From an uncultured Acidimicrobiia bacterium (GTDB lineage Bacteria; Actinomycetota; Acidimicrobiia; Spongiisociales; UBA11373): a DNA stretch of 64,000 nucleotides. Each line of letters starts with the position of its first letter. Position 1 is the stretch's first letter. Shown piece after piece: positions 1 to 11,349 of the stretch. The notes below the pieces were generated by a model. The model worked only from the letters and a program-made list of their open reading frames with translations, was not told where the DNA came from and ran no database searches. Position numbers and translations under genes: made by a program. The stretch is from positions 68,574 through 132,573 of the forward strand of contig CAZTJO010000001.1 in assembly GCA_964614095.1 (NCBI GenBank). The letters run 5' to 3'.

Positions 1-271
1 CTCCGTCGACCAGCAACTCGTCGACGATCCCCACGATGACCGCGCGGATCGGCGCCGTGGGATCGGAGACCACCTGGCGTGCCGCGTTGCCCTCGTCGAT
101 GATCAGCACGGTCTCCCCGTACCCGGCATCGACCGAATCGACGCAGATGAGGTAGTCGCCGGTATCCCGGCCGTCGGCATCGAGCAGATCACACATGAGC
201 AAGCGGCGGTGGTCGTAGACCGGGGCACTGATGGTGGAGATCACGGTGCCGGACACGCGTCCGATCTTCAC
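1..271 (-). CDS. BMC vertex (pentamer) shell protein, EutN/CcmL/PduN family (BMC-P); 3' end probably runs off the window
   Basis: Manual translation of the reverse strand from a GTG at 271 gives VKIGRVSGTVISTISAPVYDHRRLLMCDLLDADGRDTGDYLICVDSVDAGYGETVLIIDEGNAARQVVSDPTAPIRAVIVGIVDELLVDG, a typical EutN fold signature (GTVV.T...VDxVGAG.GE.VL...GS.AR; AxIVGIVD). The GTG overlaps the TGA of the upstream BMC-P (GTGA). This gene is not in the ORF track because it is edge-truncated. Confidence 0.7.
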   Translation of the reverse strand, partial: MKIGRVSGTVISTISAPVYDHRRLLMCDLLDADGRDTGDYLICVDSVDAGYGETVLIIDEGNAARQVVSDPTAPIRAVIVGIVDELLVDG

Positions 272-537
272 GATCGCTCCACGTGGTCGACGATCCCCAC
301 GACGGCATGATCGACCGGGACGAACGGATCGGGCATCGCCAGCGCGGCCTCCCGGCTCCCCACGATGTAAACCATCTCCCCAGGGCCGGCCATGTGCACT
401 CCGTCGCCGGCCACCACCTGGCGCCCGACCGGGTTCCGATCGCGATCCAGCGGCTGCACTACCAGGAAGCGGACCCCTGCCAAACCCTCACACTTAACCG
501 TGGCGACGACGGTCCCGGTGACCCTAGCGAGCTGCAT
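268..537 (-). CDS. BMC vertex (pentamer) shell protein, EutN/CcmL/PduN family (BMC-P)
   Basis: Track ORF 268..591(-). An internal Met gives MQLARVTGTVVATVKCEGLAGVRFLVVQPLD...AVDHAVVGIVD, the EutN/PduN signature. Start placed at the ATG at 537; the 18 aa upstream lack homology. Confidence 0.75.
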   Translation of the reverse strand: MQLARVTGTVVATVKCEGLAGVRFLVVQPLDRDRNPVGRQVVAGDGVHMAGPGEMVYIVGSREAALAMPDPFVPVDHAVVGIVDHVERS

Positions 538-1129
538 CCGGGCCTCCTCCCTTCCGGCCGGCCCGCGGCCCGAAGCGGGCATCGCCCTCAAGGTTCTCGG
601 TCATCTCGGGGTGCAGGCTGGGGATGACCGACGCCCGCACCAAATGGCCCTGCGGCACCCGTCCGGCGCCGATCTCCACCGCGGCCTCGACGTCGGGGAC
701 CTCGCCCCCGAACAACACATAGCCCTTGCCGCCCAGGCCGTCGGCCATACGCAGCTCCACGATGACGACATCGGCCCCCTTGACGCCCCCGTCGGCGGCC
801 TCCAGTATCGAGGCCACCGAGGTGGTCTCCACAACCCCCAGGGCCTCAATAGCACCGACAATGGTGGTCCCCCGCACCGCCGCCACCACGCCGGGATGGA
901 CGTCGGGGAGGAACACGATGTCGAGCATCGACTCGCCGGAAGCGCCCTGCCCGGCGTCGATCGCCTCCTCGACGCTGGCGGTGTCGCCGGCCACCAACAC
1001 CAGGTAGTGGCCGGGCTGCACCGTGCCCGCCACCAGCGCCGAGATCGGGGCTCGCTTCGCCATGGCGTCGCCGGCGACAATGCCCGCCGCCACCGAGTTG
1101 AATTCGAGCAGTGCTAGTGCGGGGTGCAT
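524..1129 (-). CDS. Tandem BMC-domain shell protein (BMC-T, PduT-like)
   Basis: 201 aa with two BMC domains: ALALLEFNSVAAGIVAGDAMAKRAPISAL...VAGDTASVEEAIDAG and GAIEALGVVETTSVASILEAADGGVKGADVVIVELRMADGLGGKGYVLFGGEVPDVEAAVEIG. Lies between an aldehyde dehydrogenase and BMC-P genes. Confidence 0.75.
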   Translation of the reverse strand: MHPALALLEFNSVAAGIVAGDAMAKRAPISALVAGTVQPGHYLVLVAGDTASVEEAIDAGQGASGESMLDIVFLPDVHPGVVAAVRGTTIVGAIEALGVVETTSVASILEAADGGVKGADVVIVELRMADGLGGKGYVLFGGEVPDVEAAVEIGAGRVPQGHLVRASVIPSLHPEMTENLEGDARFGPRAGRKGGGPDAAR

Positions 1130-1130
1130 G

Positions 1131-2585
1131 TCAGATGATCCTCAATGCGCCGACCACGGCGATGCGGCGCTCGCGGGTGAAGGTGAGCGGCCGGGTCATG
1201 CCGTCGCCGCTAGGGCTGGCGATGGAAAAGGAGGTGAAACCCTCACCCCCCTGGCCCAGGCCGGCGTAGTTGGGGCCATTGGCGATAAAGATGCTCACGC
1301 TGATGGTGCGCGCCATCCGGGTGATGGTGGAAACGTTGGTGGAGTGGATCGAGGCCGTGTGTCGGAAGCCGTGCTCGGCGCGCACCGCCAGATCGATCGC
1401 CTCGTCGATGTTCGACGCCCGGACCACGGGCATCACCGGCATCATCTGCTCGGTCCACACCAGGTTGTGCTCGGGGGGCACCTCAACGACCAGCAACCGG
1501 GGATCACCCTCGACCTCGACCCCGGCCGCCTGGGCGATCACCCCGGCGTCCTTTCCGATCCAGCGCGGGTTGATCACGCCCGGCTTTGAGGGCGGCCCCA
1601 TCGAGGAGAACACCAGGCGCTCCACCTTGCGCAGCTCGTGCTCCTTGAGGATGTGGGCCCCGTTGCGGCCCATGGCTCGCAGCAGCTCGTCCGCCACGGA
1701 GCGGACGACGATCGTCTCCTTCTCGTCGATGCAGATGATGTTGTTGTCGAAGGAGGCCCCGGCGACGATGTCGCGGCCCGCCTGCTCCAGGTTGGCGGTC
1801 TCATCCACCACCGCCGGCGGGTTGCCGGGCCCGGCGGTCACCGCTCGCTTGTCGGTCTTGAGCGCCTCTCGCACCACCCCCGGGCCCCCGGTGACGAGGA
1901 GAACCTGGATCTTGGGGTGGTGCATCAGCTCCTGGGCACTCTCGATGGTGGGGACGGCCATCGTGGTCACCAGGTCGGGGGGTCCGCCGGCAGCGAGAGT
2001 CGCCCGGTTCAGGAGCCGCACCGCTTCGGCGGACACCTTCTTGGCGTTGGGGTGAACGTTGAATACCACCCCGTTGCCGCCGGAGAGGATGGCGATGGCG
2101 TTGTTGATGATGGTGGCCGTGGGATTGGTGGTGGGGGTGATCGAGCCGATCAGGCCGAAGGGGGCCATCTCGGTGAGCATCATCCCGTCGTCCCCGGTCT
2201 CGATGATGGGATCCAGATCCTCCGGGCCCGGGGTGCGGGTGGCGACGAGCAGGTTCTTGCGAACCTTGTCCTCCACGCGCCCCAGCCCCGTCTCCTCCTG
2301 GGCCATTTTGGCCAGCCGCTCGGAGTTGTCCACCATGGTGCGCCGGATTGAGTCGATGACGGCCACCCGGATCTCCGACCCCTTTTGCTGGTACTGGGCG
2401 CAGGCGCGATCGGCGGCGACGACGGCCGCGTCCACGGTCTCGTAGATGCCCTCCCCAAGCTCGATCTCGGGCACTTCGACCGGGACCCGGGGCCTCTCGG
2501 GCACGGCTTCGGCCGTGCCTCCCAGACGGAGGCGGACCCGAGCGATGATCTCGTAGATCTCCTCCTGGTCCAAGCCGGTGGTCAT
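1131..2585 (-). CDS. CoA-acylating aldehyde dehydrogenase (PduP/EutE-like) with N-terminal encapsulation-peptide-like helix
   Basis: ALDH superfamily, acylating type (IVVRSVADELL..., GPNYAGLGQGGEGF, Cys-containing catalytic region IICIDEKE). ATG at 2585 gives MTTGLDQEEIYEIIARVRLRLGG, an amphipathic helix followed by a linker, as in PduP encapsulation peptides. The start sits 1 nt after the upstream BMC-P stop (TGAcATG). Confidence 0.8.
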   Translation of the reverse strand: MTTGLDQEEIYEIIARVRLRLGGTAEAVPERPRVPVEVPEIELGEGIYETVDAAVVAADRACAQYQQKGSEIRVAVIDSIRRTMVDNSERLAKMAQEETGLGRVEDKVRKNLLVATRTPGPEDLDPIIETGDDGMMLTEMAPFGLIGSITPTTNPTATIINNAIAILSGGNGVVFNVHPNAKKVSAEAVRLLNRATLAAGGPPDLVTTMAVPTIESAQELMHHPKIQVLLVTGGPGVVREALKTDKRAVTAGPGNPPAVVDETANLEQAGRDIVAGASFDNNIICIDEKETIVVRSVADELLRAMGRNGAHILKEHELRKVERLVFSSMGPPSKPGVINPRWIGKDAGVIAQAAGVEVEGDPRLLVVEVPPEHNLVWTEQMMPVMPVVRASNIDEAIDLAVRAEHGFRHTASIHSTNVSTITRMARTISVSIFIANGPNYAGLGQGGEGFTSFSIASPSGDGMTRPLTFTRERRIAVVGALRII

Positions 2586-2586
2586 G

Positions 2587-2883
2587 TCAGTCGCGGTACT
2601 TGTGGTACATGGTGTCGCCCCCAACCTCCCAGGTATCGACGATCGCCATCACGACGGCGTCGCAGGGCCGGTCCTTGGTGTGGATCGTCTGGCGCGCCGC
2701 CGACCCGGTGGCGTACATCACGATCTCCCCGATGCCGGCGCCGACGGCGTCGGCGGCCACCACGTAGGACCCGGTCTCGGTCTCGTCCACATCGATTTGG
2801 CGCAGCACGAGGAACTTGAGCCCCTCGAGCGTCGCCTCCTTGCGGGTGGCAACGAGCGTCCCGGCAACGCGGCCCAACAGCAT
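2587..2883 (-). CDS. BMC vertex (pentamer) shell protein, EutN/CcmL/PduN family (BMC-P)
   Basis: 98 aa: [31 protein letters not shown]...[23 protein letters not shown]...AVVMAIVD. Third EutN-family paralog in the locus. Confidence 0.8.
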
Positions 2884-2899
2884 GCGTGCCTCCCGACGC

Positions 2900-3205
2900 T
2901 CAGTCCGCGATCTCGGCTTCGGCCTCCTCGGCTCGGCCGAGCGGGAGTACCAGGTCGATATTGACGTGCGGGCGCGCGATCACGTGGGTGGCGATCACCT
3001 CGCCAACCTTCTCTGCGCCGCGGGTCCCGGCGTCGATGGCGGCCTTCACCGCGGCGACGTCGCCGCGCACCACCGCGGTCACATAACCGCCGCCCGTCTT
3101 CTCATAGGACACCAGCTCGACCTTGGCTGCCTTGACCATCGCGTCGGCCGCCTCGACCATCGCCGGAAAACCGCGGCATTCGATCATGCCGAGTGCTTGT
3201 GCCAT
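2900..3205 (-). CDS. BMC hexamer shell protein (BMC-H, PduA/EutM-like) with short acidic C-terminal tail
   Basis: [60 protein letters not shown]...VIARPH is a canonical PF00936 BMC domain. AAGGAGAG Shine-Dalgarno sequence upstream on the minus strand. Confidence 0.85.
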
Positions 3206-3241
3206 TGGCTCTCCTTGCTCCGTCCTTCTGTTCCGAAACCC

Positions 3242-3874
3242 CTACTCGTCCATGGGCCGGCCGTCCAGCCCCTCCAGGGCCGCCACCGCGGCCCGCCAGC
3301 CCACGTCGATGTCCCGCTCCTCGCCGCCAAGGTACACCCGGCCCAGCGAGCCGAAGGAGCGGACCTCGAGTATGTTGATCTCAGCGGCCTTCTCCGCCTC
3401 ATTGGCGGCGATGGCGGCGTAGGAGGCCGGCTCCATCTCGAGCACGTACAACGTCTGCCCCGGGATCAGCATCTGGCCGTGCCGCATGCGGTTGATCAGC
3501 TGCGCCTGGTGGTCGTCGATGCGACGAATGATCTGGCTGCTGGCGATACGGGGCTTGATGCGGCTCTCCTCCTTGGCTTCGATCGCATCGAGGATGGCGG
3601 CGCCGGCGGCCCTGGTCTCCGCCTGGTGGGGCGAATGCACCTCGAGCAACCCGAAGTAGCGCTCGACGATCTGCATGCCCGGTCGCACCGTGGTCGCCTT
3701 GAGGGCGACGTCGGTGAGACGGTTGATCTCGATCCCCGGGGAGATCTCCACAAACAGGGAAGCCTCTCCGGCCAGCGGGAGGAAACCCTGGGCGACCGTG
3801 CCCAGGAACGCGGCGTACTGGGGCTGCAGACTGTCGAGGAACGAATACCCCCGCAGGTCGACATTGTTGCTCAC
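3242..3874 (-). CDS. Tandem BMC-domain shell protein (BMC-T)
   Basis: 210 aa. Two BMC-like halves: ([39 protein letters not shown]...) and ([61 protein letters not shown]). GTG start overlaps the deoC stop (GTGA). Lacks the PduL motifs (no GxSNRHxHL / RHIHM), so it is not the phosphotransacylase. Confidence 0.6.
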
Positions 3875-4725
3875 TGAGCCCCTCCCGTCTCGCCGACGAT
3901 CTCGATTCCGGCCGAGGCGCCGATCCGGGTGGCCCCGGCGGCGATCATCTCCTCGGCGTCCCGGCGGGTGCGGATGCCGCCGGAGGCCTTCACTCCCATC
4001 TCCGGGCCGACGGCCTCCCTCATGAGGGCGACGTCGTAGACGGTGGCGCCCCCGGGCCCGAATCCCGTCGAGGTCTTGACGAAATGGGCTTTCGACTGCT
4101 TGGCGAGGCGGCTGACGATGACCTTCTCCTCATCGGTGAGCATCGCCGCCTCGATGATGACCTTGCACACCGCTCCGGCCTCCCGGCAGGCGTCGACGAC
4201 TCCGGCGATGTCCCGGGCCACCAGGTCGTATTCGCCCGATTTGAGGGCACCCACATTGATCACCATATCGATCTCACGCGCCCCGTCCCGAATGGCTTCG
4301 CGAGCCTCCATCGCCTTAATCCGCGGGGTGTGGGCTCCCAGGGGGAAGCCGATCACGGAACAGGTGATCACGTCGGAGCCGCGCAGTTTCTCGGCAACCC
4401 GCTTCACCCAGGCCGGGTTGACGCAGACCGCGGCGAAGCCATAGGTGATGGCCTCGTCGCACATCCGGTCGATGTCCCCGGAAGTGGCGTCGGCCTTGAG
4501 CAGGGTGTGATCGATGAAGCCGGCGAGGTCGGTGGGCACGTCGGCGCCGGCCCCGTTGTAGGAGATGCGGCTCGCCCCGGCCGCCACCACCTGACGCACC
4601 TTCTCGGAGGAATGCGAGGCGCAGTCGCCGAAGCACACCAGGCACTCGGCGAAGGCCCCACCGGTGAGTGCCGAGAGCACCTCCCGGGTCACCGCCTCCA
4701 CAATGGCATCGAAGTCGTCGCTCAT
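3871..4725 (-). CDS. deoC: Deoxyribose-phosphate aldolase (class I DeoC) with about 60-aa N-terminal extension (encapsulation-peptide-like helix plus Cys-containing linker)
   Basis: Core [12 protein letters not shown]...[10 protein letters not shown]...VIGFPLGAH...IDMVIN...FVKTSTGF...[10 protein letters not shown]...GASRIGAS aligns along its length with class I DeoC, including the Schiff-base Lys region (FVKTSTGF). The N-terminus from the ATG at 4725 is [23 protein letters not shown], followed by [21 protein letters not shown] overlap with the rpiB stop. Confidence 0.85.
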
Positions 4726-5381
4726 AGGGCCGACCGCCCCGCCGGCGCCAGGTACCTTCGCTCGATCTCGCCGATCTTCTTCACCCGGCGGGCGTGGCGG
4801 CCTTCGGCCCACGGCGTGTCGAGCCAGGTCTCGACGATCTGCCAGGCCAAGCCCTCGCCGATGAGTGCGGCGCCCAGCGTGAGCACATTGGCGTGGTTGT
4901 GCTCGCGGCTGTTGCGAGCCGAGGACAAGTCGTAGCAGAGCGCGGCCCTGATCCCCGGCACCTTGTTGGCTACCATGGCCGACCCGATCCCGGCGCCGTC
5001 CACGACGATTCCGTAGGTGCAGGCACCCGAGGAGACCTGCTCGGCCACCGCCAGCGCCAGGTCCGGATAGTCGACGGCCTCGGTGGAGTCGGTCCCGCAG
5101 TCCACCACAACGTAGCCTTGCTCCCGGAGCCGGAAGACCAGGCGCTCCTTGAGTTTGAAGCCCCCGTGATCGGCCCCGATGGCGATCGAAGCGGCGGTGC
5201 CGGACGCAGGACCGGCGGGAACGGGAGCAGGTGCGGCGACCGGCGCAGCGGCTGAGGATCGATCTGCCAGCACCCCGGTCACCACTCGGGTCACCAGGGC
5301 GCGAATCTCTTCCTCGTCTGGAAGTACCGGGCGAGTCACCAAGGCATTATTCCACGAAAGCCACCGCCCGGCGGTGGTCAT
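4722..5381 (-). CDS. rpiB: Ribose-5-phosphate isomerase B (RpiB/LacAB family) with N-terminal encapsulation-peptide-like helix and Ala/Pro-rich linker
   Basis: C-terminal 150 aa IAIGADHGGFKLKE...VVDCGTDS...DYPD...GIVVDGAGIGSAMVANKVPGIRAALCYD...NHANVLTLGA match RpiB. Start chosen at the ATG at 5381: MTTAGRWLSWNNALVTRPVLPDEEEIRALVTRVVTGVLADRSSAAAPVAAPAPVPAGPASGTAAS. Further-upstream in-frame codons exist, so start confidence is moderate. Confidence 0.75.
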   Translation of the reverse strand: MTTAGRWLSWNNALVTRPVLPDEEEIRALVTRVVTGVLADRSSAAAPVAAPAPVPAGPASGTAASIAIGADHGGFKLKERLVFRLREQGYVVVDCGTDSTEAVDYPDLALAVAEQVSSGACTYGIVVDGAGIGSAMVANKVPGIRAALCYDLSSARNSREHNHANVLTLGAALIGEGLAWQIVETWLDTPWAEGRHARRVKKIGEIERRYLAPAGRSAL

Positions 5382-5459
5382 CGCGCGGCACCTAGGCTGG
5401 GGCGAGCGACGCAGGAGCCGACTGTTGGCCGAAGACCCTACATCGATCTGGGAACAGCG

Positions 5460-5478
5460 GCGCCCGGGACGCGCCCGG
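5460..5478. promoter_or_regulatory. Direct repeat GCGCCCGG-N3-GCGCCCGG (contains CCCGGG palindrome) in the 100-bp divergent region between rpiB and the MerR-like regulator
   Basis: Read directly from the sequence. Lies immediately upstream of the regulator ATG (5482) and about 80 bp upstream of the BMC operon start (5381, minus strand). Confidence 0.3.
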
Positions 5479-5481
5479 CGT

Positions 5482-6033
5482 ATGCCCCGCTCCTCTCCCC
5501 AAGCAGCGACCGCGCCGTCTCCATCGCCCGATGAGATCGCCGCCGCGGCGGTCCCGATCGCCGCAGACCGGATCACCCTGCAGGAAGCAGCCAAGCGCTT
5601 CGGCGTCTCGGCTTCCACCCTGGGGTCGTGGTGCCGCTCCGGTGAGATCGATGCGGCGAAGCAGCAAGGCCGCTGGATGGTGGTCCCCCGCTCGGTCTCG
5701 ACGCGCCAGCGAGCCGGCCGAAGCCGCGGCGGCACCGCGCTGGCGGCCCGGAGCGGTCCCAGCGCCGATGGATCGGCGATGCTGGTGCCGCGCCATGCCT
5801 GGGACAAGCTGATGGACCAGCTGGGCAACCTCCATCAGGCCGGGCAGCAATTGGCCGAGGCCCGGGAGCGGGCGGCCCGCGCCGAGACGGAGGCCAGGTT
5901 CCTGCGGGAACGCCTGGGCGAGATGCGCCAAGAACGGGACACCTTGCGGCGGAGAGTCGGCGAGGAGCCAGCCCCGGCCCGGGGAACAGTGCCGCTGCGC
6001 ACCCGTCTGGCCCGAATCTTCGGGCGCGGCTGA
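5482..6033 (+). CDS. MerR/excisionase-like helix-turn-helix DNA-binding protein with C-terminal coiled coil; candidate regulator divergent from the BMC operon
   Basis: ITLQEAAKRFGVSASTLGSWCRSGEIDAAKQQGRWMVVP is a MerR-type HTH. C-terminus is Arg/Glu/Leu-rich (LAEARERAARAETEARFLRERLGEMRQERDTLRRR), predicted coiled coil. Start at the ATG at 5482 within track ORF 5179..6033; start is uncertain. Confidence 0.5.
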   Translation: MPRSSPQAATAPSPSPDEIAAAAVPIAADRITLQEAAKRFGVSASTLGSWCRSGEIDAAKQQGRWMVVPRSVSTRQRAGRSRGGTALAARSGPSADGSAMLVPRHAWDKLMDQLGNLHQAGQQLAEARERAARAETEARFLRERLGEMRQERDTLRRRVGEEPAPARGTVPLRTRLARIFGRG

Positions 6034-6204
6034 TTCCCTAGGTGTGATAACCGAGGACGTTGTCCCTGGTGCGGCGGTGTGATGGGTTGAGCCCTCCAAA
6101 CGAGACTGTGGGCTGAGAAGACTCACAACTCGTACATTCAGACGCCGATCATCTAACGACGCGAAGACGGTCTCTTAATCTCGCCGATCCGGTGATCGGC
6201 TAGT

Positions 6205-7182
6205 TTGCTCTCCGTGGCCGACGCCATCATCGCCACCCGCGACCTGCGATTCGCCTACGGCGACATCCTCGCGCTGCAGGATGTCAGCGTCGACGTGCCG
6301 CCCGGCAGCATTGGCCTGGTTGGCGCCAACGGCGCCGGCAAGACCACCCTGCTCAAGGTCCTGCTGGGAATCCTCCGCCCGCAGCGGGGCGAAGCCTGGC
6401 TGCTCGGTCAGCGAGTGAACCGGGCCACGCTGGAGGTGCGCTCACGCGTCGGCTACATGCCGGAGACGGCCTGCCTGCCTCCGGACCAGACCGCCGCCGA
6501 TTTCCTCATCTACGCCGCCGAGCTGGCCGGCCTGCCCACCAGGGCGGCCCGCCAGCGGGCCAGCGATGTGCTCACGCTGGTCGGGTTGCACGAAGAGCGG
6601 TTTCGCTACATGGGCGGCTTCAGCACCGGCATGGCCCAGCGGGCCAAGCTGGCTCAGGCCATCGTTCACGACCCCGATCTTGTGCTCCTAGATGAGCCCA
6701 CCGCCGGCCTTGACCCCGAGGGCCGGGAGGAGATGCTGGCCCTGATAGGCCGGCTCGGCAGTTTTGGGATCAACGCCATCATCTCCTCGCACATGCTTCC
6801 CGACATCGAACGCACCTGCGATTGGGTGATGATGCTCGACGGCGGGCGCTTGCTGCGTGCCGGGCCGCTCACCGAGTTGTCGGTGACCGGCGAGGTCACC
6901 CTCGAGGTCCTCGACGATCCTGCGCCGGTGCTGGCCGCCGTTGCGAAACATGGCGGCAGCGCCCACATCGAGGGCCGCACGATCGTGGTGGAGACCGAGA
7001 GGGGCGATCCGTTCGATCTCATCCGTGATGCCCTGGCCGAGACCGGCGCCGCCCTACGCCGGCTGGGCCCGCGCCGCACCACTTTGGAGGACATCTTCCT
7101 GGCCGGCGAGCAAATAGCGCCTGCCTCCTCCGACATCAAGACCGAACTCGACGAGGAATCGGCCAAAGGAGATCGAACGTGA
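6205..7182 (+). CDS. ABC transporter ATP-binding protein
   Basis: Walker A GANGAGKTTLL, signature/Walker B region LLDEPTAGLDPEG, H-loop. TTG/GTG start region. Confidence 0.85.
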   Translation: MLSVADAIIATRDLRFAYGDILALQDVSVDVPPGSIGLVGANGAGKTTLLKVLLGILRPQRGEAWLLGQRVNRATLEVRSRVGYMPETACLPPDQTAADFLIYAAELAGLPTRAARQRASDVLTLVGLHEERFRYMGGFSTGMAQRAKLAQAIVHDPDLVLLDEPTAGLDPEGREEMLALIGRLGSFGINAIISSHMLPDIERTCDWVMMLDGGRLLRAGPLTELSVTGEVTLEVLDDPAPVLAAVAKHGGSAHIEGRTIVVETERGDPFDLIRDALAETGAALRRLGPRRTTLEDIFLAGEQIAPASSDIKTELDEESAKGDRT

Positions 7183-8051
7183 CGGAAGGCGTCATCTTCG
7201 ATCTCGGCTACCAGCCTCACGAGGGCGAACGTCTGGGCCGCGCCGGCGCGGTGCGCGCCCTATATCGTGACGGCCTGCGCCGGGTTCTCGGACTGCGGCG
7301 CCGCGCCCGCAGCAAGGTCCTCCCCGTCCTGCTGCTCAGCATCGCCGTGCTGCCCGCCTTGTTCTTCGTCGGCATCAGCGTGTTCACCGGGGAGATTGGG
7401 CTCGACGAGGTGGAGTTCTTCACCCACGCCCAGTACTTCGGCATGACCTCGGCGATCGCGATGATCTTCACCGCACTCGCCGCCGGGGAGCTGCTGGTCC
7501 CCGATCGTACTTTCGGCACTCTGGCGGTGTATGCGTCCCGGCCGCTGACTATGGAGGACTACCTCGTCGGCCGTGCCGCATCGCTGATCACCGTGGTCTT
7601 CGGCTTCATGTATCTGCCCCAATTGGTGCTCTTCCTGGGCAGGGCCTGGGTCAGCACCGAGGGCTTCGGATCATTTGTGGCCGGAAATCTCGGCACTCTG
7701 TGGCGTACCGCGGCGGCGTCGGCCGTCTACTTCGTAGCCTTCGCCCCGTTGGCTTTTGTCATCTCCGCCTACGCCAAGCGCGCCTCCTTCGCCGCGGCAA
7801 CTTTCATCGGCCTCATGTTCATCAGCTCGGCGGTGCCCCAGGCCCTTACGGACGCCGGCTTCAAACCCGCCGCCTTTCTGGCGCTGCAGCAGCACCCGGG
7901 TTTGGTGCGGGATTGGATCATGGGAGAGAACACCAACCGGTGGATACCCGAGAGCGCCGGGTACGGGCCGATTCCATCTCTGATCATCATCCTTCTCGTC
8001 GCCGCCCTCACCATCTTCCTGGTGGTCCGCCGCTACCGGAGGCTGACGTGA
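7179..8051 (+). CDS. ABC-2 type transporter permease
   Basis: 290 aa with multiple hydrophobic spans. Coupled to the upstream ATPase by a 4-nt overlap. Confidence 0.7.
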   Translation: MTEGVIFDLGYQPHEGERLGRAGAVRALYRDGLRRVLGLRRRARSKVLPVLLLSIAVLPALFFVGISVFTGEIGLDEVEFFTHAQYFGMTSAIAMIFTALAAGELLVPDRTFGTLAVYASRPLTMEDYLVGRAASLITVVFGFMYLPQLVLFLGRAWVSTEGFGSFVAGNLGTLWRTAAASAVYFVAFAPLAFVISAYAKRASFAAATFIGLMFISSAVPQALTDAGFKPAAFLALQQHPGLVRDWIMGENTNRWIPESAGYGPIPSLIIILLVAALTIFLVVRRYRRLT

Positions 8052-8986
8052 CCACCGATTCTCCCGCCTGGGTCGCCGCGGCCACGGTCGAAGTCAACGG
8101 GATCTCAAAATGGTTCGGGCAGAAGGTGGCCGTTTCCGATGTGAGCTGCTCCTTCGGCCCCGGCATCACCGGGCTGCTTGGTCCCAATGGAGCCGGCAAG
8201 ACCACGTTGCTGAGGATGGTCTGCGGCCTGCTCACCCCATCCGACGGATCGGTCTCCGTGCTCGGGCAGAACCCACGGCGCCGGCCTCAGGTCTACCGAT
8301 CGCTCGCCCTCGTCCCGGAGGAGACCGCCCTCTACGGTTTTCAAACGGCACGCCAGTTCGTCAACTACTCGGCGGCGCTGTCCAAGGTCGATGTCGCCCG
8401 CGTCGACGACGCCATTGCATCCGTCAATCTCGAGGATGCCGCCGACCGGCCGCTATCCGGCTACAGCAAAGGAATGCGTCAGCGCGCCAAGGTGGCTGCC
8501 GCATTGGTCACCGGCGCCGAGGTACTGGTGCTCGATGAGCCGTTGAACGGAACCGACCCCGTGCAACGGAGCCACTTGATCGACATCTTCCGCCGCCTTG
8601 CCGCCGCCGGGCACACCGTCATCGTTTCGTCCCACGTGCTTGCCGAGGTGGAGCGAATGGCCGACCGGGTGCTCGCCATCGTCGACGGCAAACTCGCCGC
8701 CGCCGGTGATGTGTCCGCCATACGGCGGGCCATGCTCGATACCCCCTACCGGGTCCGTATCGAGGCGGGCGACCCGCGGCGGCTGGCTTCGGCGCTGCTG
8801 CAGTCCGAGGCGGTCGAGGCGGCAAGCCTCGCCGGCCGGGCCCTGCATGTGGAAACGTCGGATCTGGTGCAGCTGGGACGCGTCCTGCCGCCCTTGGCTC
8901 GCGATCTCGATCTCAGCCTCACCCTGTTCGAGCCCGAGGACCTGTCGCTGGAGAGCGTCTTCCGCTACTTGGTGAGGCGACGATGA
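8048..8986 (+). CDS. ABC transporter ATP-binding protein (second pair)
   Basis: GPNGAGKTTLLRMV Walker A, LSGYSKGMRQR signature, VLVLDEPLNGTD Walker B. GTG at 8048 overlaps the upstream stop. The track ORF from 7700 is an artefactual N-terminal extension. Confidence 0.85.
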   Translation: MTTDSPAWVAAATVEVNGISKWFGQKVAVSDVSCSFGPGITGLLGPNGAGKTTLLRMVCGLLTPSDGSVSVLGQNPRRRPQVYRSLALVPEETALYGFQTARQFVNYSAALSKVDVARVDDAIASVNLEDAADRPLSGYSKGMRQRAKVAAALVTGAEVLVLDEPLNGTDPVQRSHLIDIFRRLAAAGHTVIVSSHVLAEVERMADRVLAIVDGKLAAAGDVSAIRRAMLDTPYRVRIEAGDPRRLASALLQSEAVEAASLAGRALHVETSDLVQLGRVLPPLARDLDLSLTLFEPEDLSLESVFRYLVRRR

Positions 8987-9729
8987 GCGCCTTTCTCCGC
9001 ATGTTCCGCACCGCTCTGCGCCAGCTGCTGGGCGGCAAGGGCGGACTCATCGTGTCCCTGCTGCTTGCCGCCCTGCCCACGCTCGTCACTTTCGTCGAGA
9101 CTCGGAACGCGGCCCCAAGCCGGGCCGTCGCGGTCTTCCACGACGCCCCCATAGGCATCCTCTTCATCATCGTGCTGCCGGCGGTGTCCCTCGTCTTCGG
9201 CTCTTCCGCCCTCGGCGACGAACGCCGCGATCAGACCCTCTCATTCCTCCTGCTTCGCCCCCAGCCCCGGGCCGTCATCTCCGGCGCCAAGCTCCTGGCC
9301 GCGTGGACGCTCTCGTTCCTGGTGGTTGGAGGCGCCGCCGCCGCCGCGGCAACGGTCGTCGGAATCCGGAGCGGCGACTGGAGTGTCTTGGGCCCCATCG
9401 TGCTGGCCATGGCGATCTCCACGCTCGCCTACACCTCAGTTTTCCTGCTCCTGGGCTACGTGACCAAGTGGGCGGTGCTGGCCGGCCTTGCCTACGCTTT
9501 CATCTGGGAATCCGGGATCTCGTTTGCCGTCAGCGGCCTGTCCACCATCTCGCTGTTCCGTATCGGATTCAGCTCGTACGCCGCCCAGGTGGACATCCCC
9601 CGAAGCCTCCGCGACTTCCTGGGCACCCTGCAACCAGGCGCCGGCGGCGCCGCGGCGAAAGCAATCGTGATCGCCGGCATCGCCGTTCTCGTCGCCGCCA
9701 ATCTGCTTCGGCACCGCGACATCACCTGA
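8983..9729 (+). CDS. ABC-2 type transporter permease (second pair)
   Basis: 248 aa with 6 predicted transmembrane segments. ATGA overlap with the upstream ATPase. Confidence 0.7.
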   Translation: MSAFLRMFRTALRQLLGGKGGLIVSLLLAALPTLVTFVETRNAAPSRAVAVFHDAPIGILFIIVLPAVSLVFGSSALGDERRDQTLSFLLLRPQPRAVISGAKLLAAWTLSFLVVGGAAAAAATVVGIRSGDWSVLGPIVLAMAISTLAYTSVFLLLGYVTKWAVLAGLAYAFIWESGISFAVSGLSTISLFRIGFSSYAAQVDIPRSLRDFLGTLQPGAGGAAAKAIVIAGIAVLVAANLLRHRDIT

Positions 9730-9783
9730 CCCTCGTGCCTGGGCCATCGGCATGCCCCCGCGCCGGGCGACGCCGCGGCTAAG

Positions 9784-11349
9784 TTGCCTCACGTGACTGA
9801 GCCCGGAACGGCCTCGTCCCGACGAGGCCTCTACCGCCAGATGGGCATTGCCGCCGCCATCGTTGCCGGCGGCACCCTGCTGTCACGGGTACTGGGCCTG
9901 GTGCGGCAAATCGTCTTCGCCTGGCTGCTCGGGGCCGGGGCCGCAGGCGACGAGTACTTCGTCGCCTTCATAATTCCCGATTTCCTCAACTACCTCCTGG
10001 CCGGCGCCTACATGGCGATCACTCTGATCCCCATCCTCACCCGACGGTTCGCCACCGGAGACGACGAGGACGCGTGGCGGGCCTTCTGGGCGGTGGCACG
10101 GCCGCTCACCATCGGCTCCGTAGTACTGGTCGCCTTCGCCATGCCCTTCGTCGGCTCAGTGCTGGGCACCGTCGAGCCAGGTTTCACCGCCGAGCAGGTA
10201 GCCAACGCCTCCCGCCTCACCCGCATCGTGCTGCCCGCCCAGATCTTCTTCATCCTCGGCCAGCTGCTCACTGCGGTTCAGTTCGCTCGGGAGCGCTTCT
10301 TGATCCCCGTCCTCGGACCCATCGTCTACAACATCGGCATCATCGCCGGCGGCATCGCCGGCGGCATCGGACGAGATAATCCCACCGCCGACGGTTTCGC
10401 CTGGGGGGCTCTAGTGGGCGCCTTCCTCGGGATCTTCCTGCTGCAGGCCTGGGGCGCATGCCGCTGCGGCCTCAAGCTGCCCGAGGGGTCGATCCGCCGC
10501 CACCCTGCGGTCAAGCGCTACTTCGCCCTCGCCATCCCCCTGATGCTCGGTCAGTCGCTGGTGGTCCTCGACGAGCAGCTCGGCCGCACCTTCGGATCAC
10601 TCTGGGAGAACGGAGGGGTATCGTGGCTCACCTTCGCGCGTCAGACGATGCTCGTTCCCGTCGGAGTCATCGCCCAGGCCGCGGGAGTAGCCACCTATCC
10701 GTTCCTGGCCCGGCTCGTCGCCGAGGGCAAACACCGCGAGATGGCCCAAGCCGTCGGCCGCGCCCTGCGCTACATCGTGGTGTTCAGCCTGGCCGCCGCC
10801 GCTGGCCTCATCGCCCTGGCAGTGCCGACGGTGAGGCTTCTCTACGAGCGCGGCTCATTCGACGACGCCGACACTCTGGCCACCGCCGGCACCCTCGTCT
10901 TCTTCGCCCTCGGGGTGCCGCTGTGGGGCCTGCAGCAGATCCTGGCCCGCGGTTTCTACGCCCGCGAGGAGATGTGGACCCCGGTGATCGTGGGGACTCT
11001 GGCCACCGCCGCCGCCGTGCCTATCTACTGGGGCCTGAACGAGGCCATGGGGGTTGATGGCCTGGCGTTGGCCAGCACCGTGGCGATCCTCCTCTACACG
11101 GGCGCCCTCGCCGCCATCTGGTACCGACGCACCGGCTGGGAGGAGGCCCGCCCCGTAGGCATCACTTCATTGCGCAACCTGCCTCTGGCGATCGCCGCCG
11201 GCTTCGCCGCTTGGGGAACCGCAGGCTGGGTCATGGACCGTTTCCCCATTCAGGGCGAGATCTCGAGCCTCAGCGCCGTCGCCGCCGGAGGTGTGGTGCT
11301 GCTAGCGGTGGCACTGCTGCCGCCATCGGTACGCCGCGATCTGTCCTAG
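9784..11349 (+). CDS. murJ: Lipid II flippase MurJ (MviN family)
   Basis: LSRVLGLVRQIVFAWLLGAGAAGDEYFVAFIIPDFLNYLLAGAYMAITLIPIL is the MurJ N-terminal signature. 521 aa, polytopic. Confidence 0.8.
   Translation: MPHVTEPGTASSRRGLYRQMGIAAAIVAGGTLLSRVLGLVRQIVFAWLLGAGAAGDEYFVAFIIPDFLNYLLAGAYMAITLIPILTRRFATGDDEDAWRAFWAVARPLTIGSVVLVAFAMPFVGSVLGTVEPGFTAEQVANASRLTRIVLPAQIFFILGQLLTAVQFARERFLIPVLGPIVYNIGIIAGGIAGGIGRDNPTADGFAWGALVGAFLGIFLLQAWGACRCGLKLPEGSIRRHPAVKRYFALAIPLMLGQSLVVLDEQLGRTFGSLWENGGVSWLTFARQTMLVPVGVIAQAAGVATYPFLARLVAEGKHREMAQAVGRALRYIVVFSLAAAAGLIALAVPTVRLLYERGSFDDADTLATAGTLVFFALGVPLWGLQQILARGFYAREEMWTPVIVGTLATAAAVPIYWGLNEAMGVDGLALASTVAILLYTGALAAIWYRRTGWEEARPVGITSLRNLPLAIAAGFAAWGTAGWVMDRFPIQGEISSLSAVAAGGVVLLAVALLPPSVRRDLS

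Follow-up and report, generated by a model that had tools for sequence, protein, structure and literature searches.

The encapsulation peptides (EPs) of the classical cargo proteins PduP, PduD, and EutC are N-terminal helices of ~18 amino acids with hydrophobic residues at positions i, i+3, i+4, i+7, and i+8. Sugar-phosphate-utilising (SPU) bacterial microcompartments (BMCs), of which more than 280 loci in 26 phyla are described, have deoxyribose-5-phosphate aldolase (DERA) and an RpiB-type isomerase (RPI) as their signature enzymes, and N-terminal EPs were reported on SPU DERA and aldehyde dehydrogenase (AldDH) in 2021, with SPU RpiB following in 2024. The SPU3 subtype, found in Actinobacteria, is described as combining AldDh, a pfam02502 gene upstream of a pfam01791 gene, BMC-H, a BMC-P triplet, BMC-Tdp, and a BMC-Ts without pore cysteine or PduS, with N-terminal EPs on AldDh and the pfam01791 protein (Sutter et al. 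2021, Nat Commun, Supplementary Data 2; PMC8217296). In the HMM classification of these authors, the SPU3 Tdp is CcmP-like and the BMC-P proteins belong to the green, grey, and orange clades. Biochemical work on SPU enzymes is confined to DERA and RPI of a Chloroflexi SPU6 system (Dwyer, Sutter & Kerfeld 2024, Commun Biol; PMC11585597). According to the same study, SPU RPI bears a typical EP at its N-terminus, joined by a linker, all SPU DERAs carry an N-terminal extension of ~70 amino acids, AldDH EPs are N-terminal in every subtype except SPU6, Cys66 is replaced by Asp in all SPU RPIs, DERA associates with RPI at a 1:1 ratio, and automated annotation systematically truncates the SPU extensions. 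SPU5 loci contain DERA and lack RPI. The DERA extension has been stated to be confined to BMC-associated DERA, and fragmented or satellite BMC loci have been offered as an explanation for extension-bearing DERA genes far from shell genes. In SPU-like microcompartments of Hodarchaeales, the predicted EPs sit either at protein termini or between domains, and GFP-tagged enzymes are no longer recruited to shells after EP deletion (preprint, PMC12747264).

Our analysis concerned a 64,000-nucleotide stretch of DNA from an uncultured Acidimicrobiia bacterium (the window), for which a preliminary description had proposed EP-like N-terminal helices on RpiB, DeoC (DERA), and AldDH. The quoted peptides were all located on the minus strand, within a co-directional nine-gene operon spanning positions 1-5381 according to Pfam matches, and the extensions on the three enzymes were confirmed by the open reading frames and by comparison with solved homologues. 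The genes, in operon order and followed by a divergent neighbor, are as follows:

4722..5339, minus strand: RpiB-type sugar-phosphate isomerase (SPU RPI), probable GTG start; Pfam LacAB_rpiB, E 8e-54
3871..4725, minus strand: DeoC/DERA, deoxyribose-5-phosphate aldolase, SPU signature enzyme; Pfam DeoC, 39 solved DERA sequences
3242..3874, minus strand: BMC-T(dp) tandem-domain shell protein, CsoS1D/CcmP-like; PF27545 CsoS1D_N (precomputed for the identical protein)
2900..3205, minus strand: BMC-H hexamer shell protein; Pfam BMC, E 5e-30
2587..2883, minus strand: BMC-P pentamer protein 1; Pfam EutN_CcmL, E 3e-29
1131..2585, minus strand: CoA-acylating aldehyde dehydrogenase of the PduP/EutE class; Pfam Aldedh (PF00171)
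524..1129, minus strand: BMC-T(s) tandem shell protein without pore cysteine; two Pfam BMC domains
268..537, minus strand: BMC-P pentamer protein 2; Pfam EutN_CcmL, called as 89 amino acids on the identical contig L001
1..271, minus strand: BMC-P pentamer protein 3, truncated by the window start; tblastn match 265-2, complete 96-amino-acid gene on L001
5482..6033, plus strand: HTH_17 (MerR/excisionase-type) gene, divergent, a candidate locus regulator; Pfam HTH_17, E 3e-8

The start contexts are of operon type, with a 1-nt gap and the ATGA overlap of the DeoC start (ATG 4725) with the RpiB stop codon. The same gene order was found on identical metagenome contigs, on which independent gene callers likewise gave 219, 284, and 484 amino acids for RpiB, DeoC, and AldDH. 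The BMC-domain match of the BMC-T(dp) protein was weak. The BMC-Ts protein has QPGH at the position of the CPGK motif of PduT-type proteins, and the BMC-P paralogues form a triplet (2883-2587, 537-268, and 271-1, the third being the truncated one). Two relatives (L005 and L007) carry a nine-gene operon of the same make-up, without PduS, PTAC, or alcohol dehydrogenase, and shell genes adjoin in all 16 of the Acidimicrobiia/Gaiellales relatives (L009-L024). A gene of 183 amino acids is called at the position of the HTH_17 gene on contig L003, and L005 and L007 likewise have a divergent gene there. No housekeeping paralogue of DeoC or RpiB was found within the window.

As in SPU loci in general, DERA (PF01791) adjoins BMC shell genes (PF00936 and PF03319), and an acylating aldehyde dehydrogenase (PF00171) belongs to the locus. 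The enzyme set agrees with SPU3 (Sutter 2021) in AldDh, in pfam02502 directly upstream of pfam01791, and in the absence of PTAC and PduS, and the shell set agrees in its single BMC-H, its three BMC-P paralogues, BMC-Tdp, and a BMC-Ts that lacks both a pore cysteine and a PduS partner; we found no substantive differences in these features. The operon therefore very probably encodes a BMC of SPU3 type whose three N-terminal helices are EPs, the subtype being assigned by its match to the published description and PF27545 CsoS1D_N being a generic match. SPU6 was considered because the locus lacks PduS, and was rejected since the AldDH EP is N-terminal and BMC-Ts is present here, whereas in SPU6 the AldDH EP is C-terminal and BMC-Ts is absent. 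The AldDH of this operon has no C-terminal extension, its C-terminus being the domain end ('...VVGALRII'). Features shared with the Chloroflexi SPU6 enzymes (Dwyer 2024) are a DERA extension of ~65-70 amino acids in which a confidently predicted helix gives way to a region of low confidence, a retained DERA Asp/Lys/Lys triad, and an RPI that has an EP helix with linker and Asp where Cys66 would stand. The 'VTPLA' module between helix and domain in the Chloroflexi-type RPI of the loci compared here is absent from this RpiB; when isolated extensions were searched against Pfam, this module, taken from other lineages, yielded nothing beyond a sub-threshold PDU_like match. RPI and DERA are separate, overlapping genes in this lineage, in contrast to their fusion in a close relative (P0017; 80% identity). 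The Hodarchaeales system shares the DERA and AldDH core but is archaeal, has DERA fused to a flavoprotein domain, and differs from the present locus in including MNdh/PduS, PTAC, and citrate synthase.

The extension of RpiB consists of a conserved helix and a variable linker, preceded by a promoter-like element:

5346..5354, minus strand: extended -10-like element TGGAATAAT, from which GTG 5339 is separated by 6 nt
5259..5315, minus strand: RpiB EP helix EEEIRALVTRVVTGVLADR; AlphaFold2 helix, conserved motif
5190..5258, minus strand: Ala/Pro-rich RpiB linker of variable length; composition, conservation, AlphaFold2 coil

The helix is predicted by AlphaFold2 at residues 9-27 (pLDDT 85-95), and its motif P-x-E-[DE]-E-[IV]-R-x-L-V is kept in ~115 homologues. 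The linker (42% Ala, 21% Pro) is predicted to be coil (pLDDT 51-60), has a conservation of 0.33 against 0.85 for the domain, and varies such that the distance from helix to domain ranges from 34 to 52 amino acids among homologues. The LacAB_rpiB domain begins at residue 66 of the 219-amino-acid reading (Pfam), and 22 solved RpiB sequences align from residue 65-66; solved non-BMC RpiB proteins thus lack the first ~50-65 residues. In the alignment with these sequences, the position of the catalytic Cys66 is occupied by Asp ('ivvDgagig' versus 'ivicgtglg'). This residue, D114, is invariant in 63 homologues, and RpiB, with Asp114 and Ala116, has no equivalents of the catalytic Cys66 and Thr68. We infer that RpiB is most likely an EP-bearing partner of DERA in the main, rather than a ribose-5-phosphate isomerase.

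The RpiB open reading frame (5381-4722) offers an upstream in-frame ATG at 5381, giving 219 amino acids, and a GTG at 5339, giving 205. The -10-like element suggests a leaderless operon transcript, and the start is probably GTG 5339 rather than ATG 5381. Given this likely start, the RpiB extension, estimated at about 70 amino acids in the preliminary description, is confirmed as present but is probably closer to ~50. The pattern TGnGATAAT-N6-GTG is kept in L005, L007, L009, and L010, and L016-L019 show -10-like hexamers (TAGGCT/TAGGGT) 6-8 nt upstream of an ATG. In three of these last four (L016, L017, and L019), the hexamer comes with an in-frame stop directly before the ATG from which the helix is read. 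A generic scan for sigma-70 promoters and terminators gave no match at 5150-6250; the -10-only leaderless pattern became visible only when the upstream regions of orthologues were aligned. A leaderless start of the first operon gene would explain the disagreement of annotators on the RpiB N-terminus. The NCBI annotation of L005 gives an RpiB of 157 amino acids without the extension.

AldDH, whose open reading frame starts at ATG 2585, shows a comparable arrangement:

2523..2570, minus strand: AldDH N-terminal EP helix DQEEIYEIIARVRLRL; heptad-like pattern conserved in orthologues
2460..2522, minus strand: Pro/Glu/Val-rich, poorly conserved AldDH linker; composition, orthologue comparison

The motif x-E-[IV]-Q/Y-x-I-I-x-R-V is kept in the AldDH orthologues of ~35 shell-linked loci, while the linker differs between orthologues in both sequence and length. 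Among solved structures, PduP-type enzymes are the closest relatives; they cover residues 39-483 (starts 39-46), and solved and non-BMC homologues lack the first ~40 residues. Direct reading of the sequences showed that the AldDH and RpiB helices have the pattern E-E-I-x-x-hydrophobic-hydrophobic-x-R-V in common. A conserved helix followed by a variable linker, as seen in RpiB and AldDH, is what is expected of EPs. For RpiB and DeoC, AlphaFold2 predicted a helix of EP-like length (~15-20 residues), whereas for AldDH the evidence is the conserved heptad-like pattern only. The hydrophobic moments of the RpiB, DeoC, and AldDH helices were 0.51, 0.58, and 0.45 (shuffle p = 0.12, 0.016, and 0.30), compared with 0.43-0.71 for three known EPs; because the RpiB and AldDH helices were not distinguished from shuffled sequences, the moment test was dropped as primary evidence. 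The EP-like character of the three helices agrees with the literature on this locus type (Sutter 2021, Dwyer 2024). As in the Pdu/Eut metabolosome EPs of PduP, PduD, and EutC, an N-terminal helix and then a flexible linker precede an acylating aldehyde dehydrogenase or a signature enzyme, but there is no significant sequence homology with these peptides, the cargo here includes DERA and RpiB, and the DERA helix leads into a conserved Cys segment instead of a free linker.

The DeoC extension has three parts:

4663..4719, minus strand: DeoC N-terminal EP-like helix; AlphaFold2, conservation, hydrophobic moment
4612..4644, minus strand: DeoC Cys/His motif C28-x2-C31-x-G-x-C35-x2-H38; conservation
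4546..4605, minus strand: second part of the DeoC extension; resembles DERA's C-terminal helix, strand 8, phosphate loop

Alignments with the 39 solved DERA sequences begin no earlier than residue 66-70 and run to residue 281 of 284, so that solved non-BMC DERA lacks the first ~65 residues. In the catalytic domain, D153, K217, and K246 lie within conserved motifs, K217 and K246 being invariant in a homologue alignment (A1). The helix is predicted at residues 3-21 (AlphaFold2, pLDDT 66-76) and is conserved in ~116 homologues, with 'LIExITxEVL' recurring across phyla. In the following motif, 61 close homologues show no variation at C31, G33, and C35 and a conservation of at least 90% at H38, and the cross-phylum consensus is Cx2CxGxCx3CP. 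When the second part is aligned with the protein itself, its best match falls within the final ~45 barrel residues in 91% of 78 loci, with a median z of 3.1. Residues 22-65 are gap-free, with a conservation of 0.73-0.82 against 0.86 for the barrel, and the extension thus breaks the rule that an EP is a helix plus a poorly conserved linker. The helix and low-complexity linker proposed for all three enzymes accordingly hold for RpiB and AldDH, with their variable linkers, but not for DeoC, where a conserved Cys/His module takes the place of the linker. The module alone matched no Pfam family. Searches of its profile against PDB sequences gave weak matches, with the DERA C-terminus at E 0.24; an armadillo-repeat match was dismissed as spurious. 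With a shallow alignment (at least 71% identity), AlphaFold2 left residues 22-63, including the Cys motif region, below a pLDDT of 50, so the model lends no structural support to a metal site. A term search of the text of two SPU papers found no mention of the Cys motif or the internal repeat.

A tentative reading, which we regard as possible although somewhat improbable, is that the ~65-amino-acid N-terminus of SPU DERA is a three-part conserved module, with an EP-like helix, a putative metal-binding Cys-rich motif, and a C-terminal pseudo-repeat, rather than an EP and linker. Such a module could have a role beyond targeting, such as regulating the aldolase or letting the cargo core self-associate in response to metal or redox state, because it also occurs in RpiB-DERA pairs without nearby shell genes. 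In a rival reading, the module would be mainly a functional domain of the aldolase rather than a shell-targeting peptide; in it, a putative metal/redox Cys/His site and an extra strand-8-like element would control oligomerisation or activity, and DERA would be encapsulated through the EP of RpiB. The conservation of the module throughout, the four cysteines of the cross-phylum consensus, and the pseudo-repeat of the protein's own C-terminus would fit this idea, as would the 1:1 DERA-RPI complex (Dwyer 2024, PMC11585597) and the internal position of the module in RPI-DERA and flavoprotein-DERA fusions. Moreover, among 80 related loci whose DeoC bears the extension with helix and Cys module, 37 lack shell genes over a distance of 7 kb; these include loci on CAVRVT010000004.1 and CAVWSQ010000003.1, and one of the 37 lies in a nucleotide-catabolism neighborhood. 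However, the DeoC helix shows the EP pattern, and the helix-plus-Cys profile bears a weak, non-significant likeness (E 0.13) to the N-terminus of E. coli EutC, which we take to be its EP region. The Cys motif is deleted in three shell-linked loci (L011, L020, and L022) and is therefore dispensable, SPU5 loci have DERA without RPI, and SPU6 DERA becomes soluble once its extension is deleted, as with other EPs, while the truncated enzyme still binds RPI. We consider it quite unlikely that the module is mainly such a functional domain, and EPs on all three enzymes remain our preferred reading.

The other explanations carry far less weight. If the extensions were start-codon artefacts, the true proteins would begin downstream, without helices; the 157-amino-acid annotation of RpiB in L005 and ATG 5381, which the preliminary description had taken as the start and which probably lies too far upstream, point in that direction. 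Automated annotation is nonetheless known to truncate SPU extensions (Dwyer 2024, PMC11585597), and the extensions survived the check for alternative starts, as the stretch from each helix to the essential catalytic residues holds no start codon, with no ATG, GTG, or TTG between the RpiB helix and the essential GADHGG motif. The helices are also kept at the protein level in more than 100 orthologues from several phyla, and orthologue starts lie directly before the helix, with in-frame stops ahead of them in L016, L017, and L019. Mis-called starts were therefore rejected as the source of the extensions and are, in our judgement, highly improbable. Even less credible is a coincidence in which generic amphipathic N-termini, serving oligomerisation or membrane association, happened to lie in a BMC operon. 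The hydrophobic moments are unexceptional and would permit it, yet three different enzymes of one shell-gene operon each carry such a helix, two of them with a common motif, the extensions are absent from solved non-BMC homologues, and the helix-bearing architecture recurs in SPU loci of many phyla. In the comparison with homologues outside BMCs, proposed earlier as a check, the solved DERA and RpiB and the non-BMC AldDH sequences lack the extensions, but the 37 shell-distant DeoC loci keep them. The outcome for DeoC is thus mixed, and these 37 may be fragmented or satellite BMC loci.

Following the published SPU model, from which we infer the pathway, a shell of BMC-H, BMC-Tdp, BMC-Ts, and three BMC-P proteins would enclose DERA, and the CoA-acylating aldehyde dehydrogenase would convert acetaldehyde to acetyl-CoA. 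The EP helices on AldDH, RpiB, and DERA may recruit the cargo or co-aggregate cargo and shell during assembly. Gene content and order, extension boundaries, helix conservation, the predicted RpiB and DeoC helices, and the active-site substitutions were established by the analysis, whereas actual targeting, the substrate, and the role of RpiB are proposals.

Publications of 2014, 2021, and 2024 already cover SPU BMCs, their cargo enzymes DERA, RPI, and AldDH, and the targeting extensions at the N-termini of all three. Recognition of the helices was therefore a correct rediscovery of the published SPU targeting peptides, and the view of encapsulated DeoC and RpiB as unusual cargo was mistaken, these being the signature enzymes of the system. 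The locus itself consequently has little discovery value. Details of use beyond the published work are the probable leaderless start, the Cys/His motif and internal repeat of DERA, and the DERA genes distant from shell genes. That nearly half of the related extension-bearing DERA genes lie away from shell genes qualifies the published confinement of the extension to BMC-associated DERA. The window provides a clean, nearly complete actinobacterial example of SPU3, and its compact nine-gene operon could serve as a test system for SPU encapsulation.

The three enzymes for which the preliminary description had reported N-terminal helices are encoded in one co-directional operon on the minus strand, which extends from about 5381 down to the start of the window. 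By Pfam, its gene order is LacAB_rpiB, DeoC, a weak BMC match (210 aa), BMC (BMC-H), EutN_CcmL, Aldedh, a two-domain BMC and EutN_CcmL. Independent gene calls on identical metagenome contigs recovered the same genes (219, 284, 210, 101, 98, 484, 201, 89, and 96 aa), and the CsoS1D_N label borne there by the 210-aa protein identifies it as BMC-Tdp. Two further genes flank this set:

271-1, minus strand: third BMC-P, cut by the window edge
5482-6033, plus strand: divergent HTH_17 gene (Pfam; MerR/excisionase-like) with a coiled-coil-like C-terminus

Relatives L003, L005, and L007 likewise have a divergent gene at the HTH_17 position, and the gene at 5482-6033 is a candidate regulator of the operon. 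Upstream, 6205-11349 (plus strand) encodes two ABC-transporter ATPase/permease pairs and MurJ; this synteny is common to L005 and L007, indicating a stable chromosomal setting for the locus rather than a recently acquired island. Everything else in the window belongs to the core chromosome, with genes for ATP synthase, Rho, RF1, ArgRS, aconitase, and glycogen synthesis. The window contains no further DeoC or RpiB, and the best relatives are MAGs of Acidimicrobiia and other Actinomycetota.

Sugar-phosphate-utilising (SPU) microcompartment loci were named in 2014, and the 2021 expansion comprised more than 280 such loci in 26 phyla, with a DeoC-type aldolase and RpiB as signature enzymes. DeoC and RpiB, which had been called unusual cargo, are thus nothing of the kind. 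The 2021 supplement (PMC8217296) describes subtype SPU3, reported in Actinobacteria, as having an aldehyde dehydrogenase (AldDH), pfam02502 ahead of pfam01791 and fused to it in some cases, one BMC-H, a BMC-P triplet, BMC-Tdp, BMC-Ts without a PduS partner or pore cysteine, and encapsulation peptides (EPs) at the N-termini of AldDH and pfam01791. Our operon matches SPU3, assigned by description, point by point: PTAC, PduS, and alcohol dehydrogenase are absent from the full operon of relatives L005 and L007, and the BMC-Ts of the window has QPGH at the site of CPGK in PduT-type proteins. Dwyer, Sutter, and Kerfeld (2024; PMC11585597) reported that every SPU DeoC aldolase (DERA) has an N-terminal extension of ~70 residues, an amphipathic helix followed by low-confidence strands; that SPU RpiB-type isomerases (RPI) carry a typical N-terminal EP and linker; that AldDH EPs are N-terminal, SPU6 excepted; that automated annotation often truncates these extensions; and that the catalytic Cys66 is replaced by Asp in all SPU RPIs. 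All of these features also hold for the window locus. D114 and A116 of its RpiB stand at the Cys66 and Thr68 equivalents in an alignment to solved RpiB, and the catalytic Asp/Lys/Lys positions of DERA are conserved in its DeoC. What had been noted here is therefore a rediscovery of traits published for a microcompartment type that is among the commonest.

The peptides quoted for the three enzymes occur in the window sequence exactly as given. Solved DERA structures cover only residues 66-281 of DeoC, beginning at chain residues 2-15; alignment with solved RpiB structures begins at residue 65-66 (219-aa reading), and that of AldDH with PduP-type aldehyde dehydrogenases at residue 39-46. All three enzymes thus bear N-terminal extensions without a counterpart in non-BMC homologues. 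AlphaFold2 models of RpiB (205-aa numbering) contain a helix at 9-27 (pLDDT 85-95), a 23-residue low-confidence coil, and the RpiB fold; those of DeoC contain a helix at 3-21 (pLDDT 66-76), a stretch below 50 at residues 22-63, and a confident TIM barrel. Helical hydrophobic moments for RpiB, DeoC, and AldDH were 0.51, 0.58, and 0.45 (shuffle p = 0.12, 0.016, and 0.30), moderate and not clearly above shuffles, so amphipathicity alone is weak evidence. About 115 homologues retain the RpiB helix motif P-x-E-[DE]-E-[IV]-R-x-L-V-x-R-[IV]-V, ahead of a variable Pro/Ala/Ser/Glu-rich spacer that places helix and domain 34-52 aa apart (mean conservation: helix 0.60, linker 0.33, domain 0.85). Orthologues of AldDH in ~35 shell-linked loci share x-E-[IV]-Q-x-I-I-x-R-V, after which the linker varies, and none of them has a C-terminal tail; the RpiB and AldDH helices of the window both contain EEIxx-hydrophobic-hydrophobic-xRV. 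The reading of the helices as EPs is supported in substance. The proposed architecture of a helix plus a low-complexity linker holds for RpiB and AldDH but not for DeoC, in which the segment after the conserved helix is itself conserved (0.73-0.82, no gaps).

The DeoC ATG overlaps the RpiB stop (ATGA), the AldDH ATG lies 1 nt past the BMC-P stop, and orthologues of both proteins start 4-8 residues ahead of the helix. In RpiB, no ATG, GTG, or TTG separates the helix from the essential GADHGG motif; hence, translation must include both helix and linker. The start itself is probably not ATG 5381, since a conserved upstream pattern favours GTG 5339:

5337-5354, minus strand: extended -10-like element TGGAATAAT plus GTG, with a spacing of exactly 6 nt to the in-frame GTG

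TG(G/A)(G/A)ATAAT lies exactly 6 nt 5' of an in-frame GTG in the window, L005, L007, L009, and L010. L016-L019 have a TAGGCT or TAGGGT hexamer 6-8 nt upstream of an ATG directly before the EP helix, and in three of these four loci the hexamer provides an in-frame stop. By comparison with actinobacterial promoters, this arrangement fits a -10 element from which a leaderless mRNA is transcribed. A generic sigma-70 promoter and terminator scan across 5150-6250 gave no hits. The pattern suggests that the operon mRNA is leaderless and that RpiB starts at 5339, not 5381, in which case its product would probably be a 205-aa protein with an extension of ~50 aa. This pattern also accounts for the odd SWNN/SWDN conservation in over-extended RpiB calls. 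For L005 (9528-10001), the NCBI annotation gives an RpiB of 157 aa without the EP, and another assembly with the same sequence gives 206 aa; the shorter call is an instance of the annotation problem described by Dwyer 2024 (PMC11585597).

The conserved part of the DeoC extension contains a cysteine-rich motif:

4612-4644, minus strand: Cys/His motif C-x2-C-x-G-x-C-x2-H (C28, C31, C35, H38; residues 28-38) in the DeoC extension

Across phyla, the post-helix consensus in the DeoC alignment is Cx2CxGxCx3CP-D-x-V-R-x-V-x-x-A-G-A-x-R, the fourth Cys of which is Ser in the window. C31, G33, and C35 are invariant among homologues, H38 is at least 90% conserved, and the motif may be a metal site. Its deletion in shell-linked loci L011, L020, and L022 means that it is not essential for encapsulation. 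Residues 41-60 (4546-4605) resemble the C-terminus of the same protein at ~254-273 (3907-3966; AAGASRIS versus AAGATRIG), so that the second half of the extension looks, from sequence, like a repeat of the DERA C-terminal helix, strand 8, and phosphate loop. Self-alignment of the extension places its best match within the final ~45 residues of the barrel for 91% of 78 loci (median z 3.1). A profile of the extension matched solved DERA C-termini at E 0.24, and its helix-plus-Cys part matched the E. coli EutC N-terminus at E 0.13; both matches were weak and neither was significant. A term search in the text of two SPU papers found neither the motif nor the repeat. In SPU6, deletion of the extension rendered DERA soluble and RPI binding was retained (Dwyer 2024, PMC11585597), which argues against the extension as an RPI-docking element. 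A close relative has a fused RpiB-DeoC protein (P0017; 496 aa, 80% identity), and more distant RpiB-DERA or flavoprotein-DERA fusions (P0244, P0265; P0249, P0250) carry the helix and Cys module between domains.

A one-genome-per-species scan yielded 80 loci with DeoC relatives at 50-84% identity. Shell genes lay within 7 kb in 43 of them, including all 16 Acidimicrobiia/Gaiellales loci (L009-L024). The other 37 RpiB-DeoC loci, chiefly from Acidobacteriota/Vicinamibacterales, lack any BMC shell or AldDH gene within that 7-kb range (L025, L029, L031, L033, L042-L043, L045-L051, L054-L055, L057-L062, L067-L069, L071-L073, L075-L077, L079, L082-L084, L086-L088). DeoC in these loci retains the helix together with, in most cases, four Cys (CxCH...CCP). 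L079, in a nucleotide-catabolism setting, has uracil phosphoribosyltransferase, amidohydrolase, xanthine dehydrogenase, and malate synthase genes as neighbours. Their RpiB has a different N-terminal module of ~45 aa (ITEADAR..G..V.L..G..VTPLA.D.L) before the RpiB domain, located at 6366-6563 in L079 and also found at the RpiB N-termini of L026, L032, L036, L044, and L053; its match to Pfam PF15953 PDU_like is sub-threshold (E 0.001-0.004). Chloroflexi-type RPI also has the module, inside its "unstructured linker"; the window RpiB lacks it. The literature records fragmented and satellite BMC loci in which the pfam01791 gene stands apart, so the 37 loci may be satellites. The extension has been reported as absent from non-BMC DERA (Dwyer 2024, PMC11585597); the 37 of 80 loci that are shell-less in a 7-kb neighbourhood qualify that statement for this clade.

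Following the published SPU model, deoxyribose-5-phosphate would enter the shell and be cleaved by DERA, giving glyceraldehyde-3-phosphate plus acetaldehyde, AldDH would trap the acetaldehyde as acetyl-CoA, and the three N-terminal helices would drive cargo-shell co-assembly. By analogy with the SPU6 DERA-RPI pair, which associates 1:1 and shows little isomerase activity (Dwyer 2024, PMC11585597), RpiB is probably a packaging partner of DERA.
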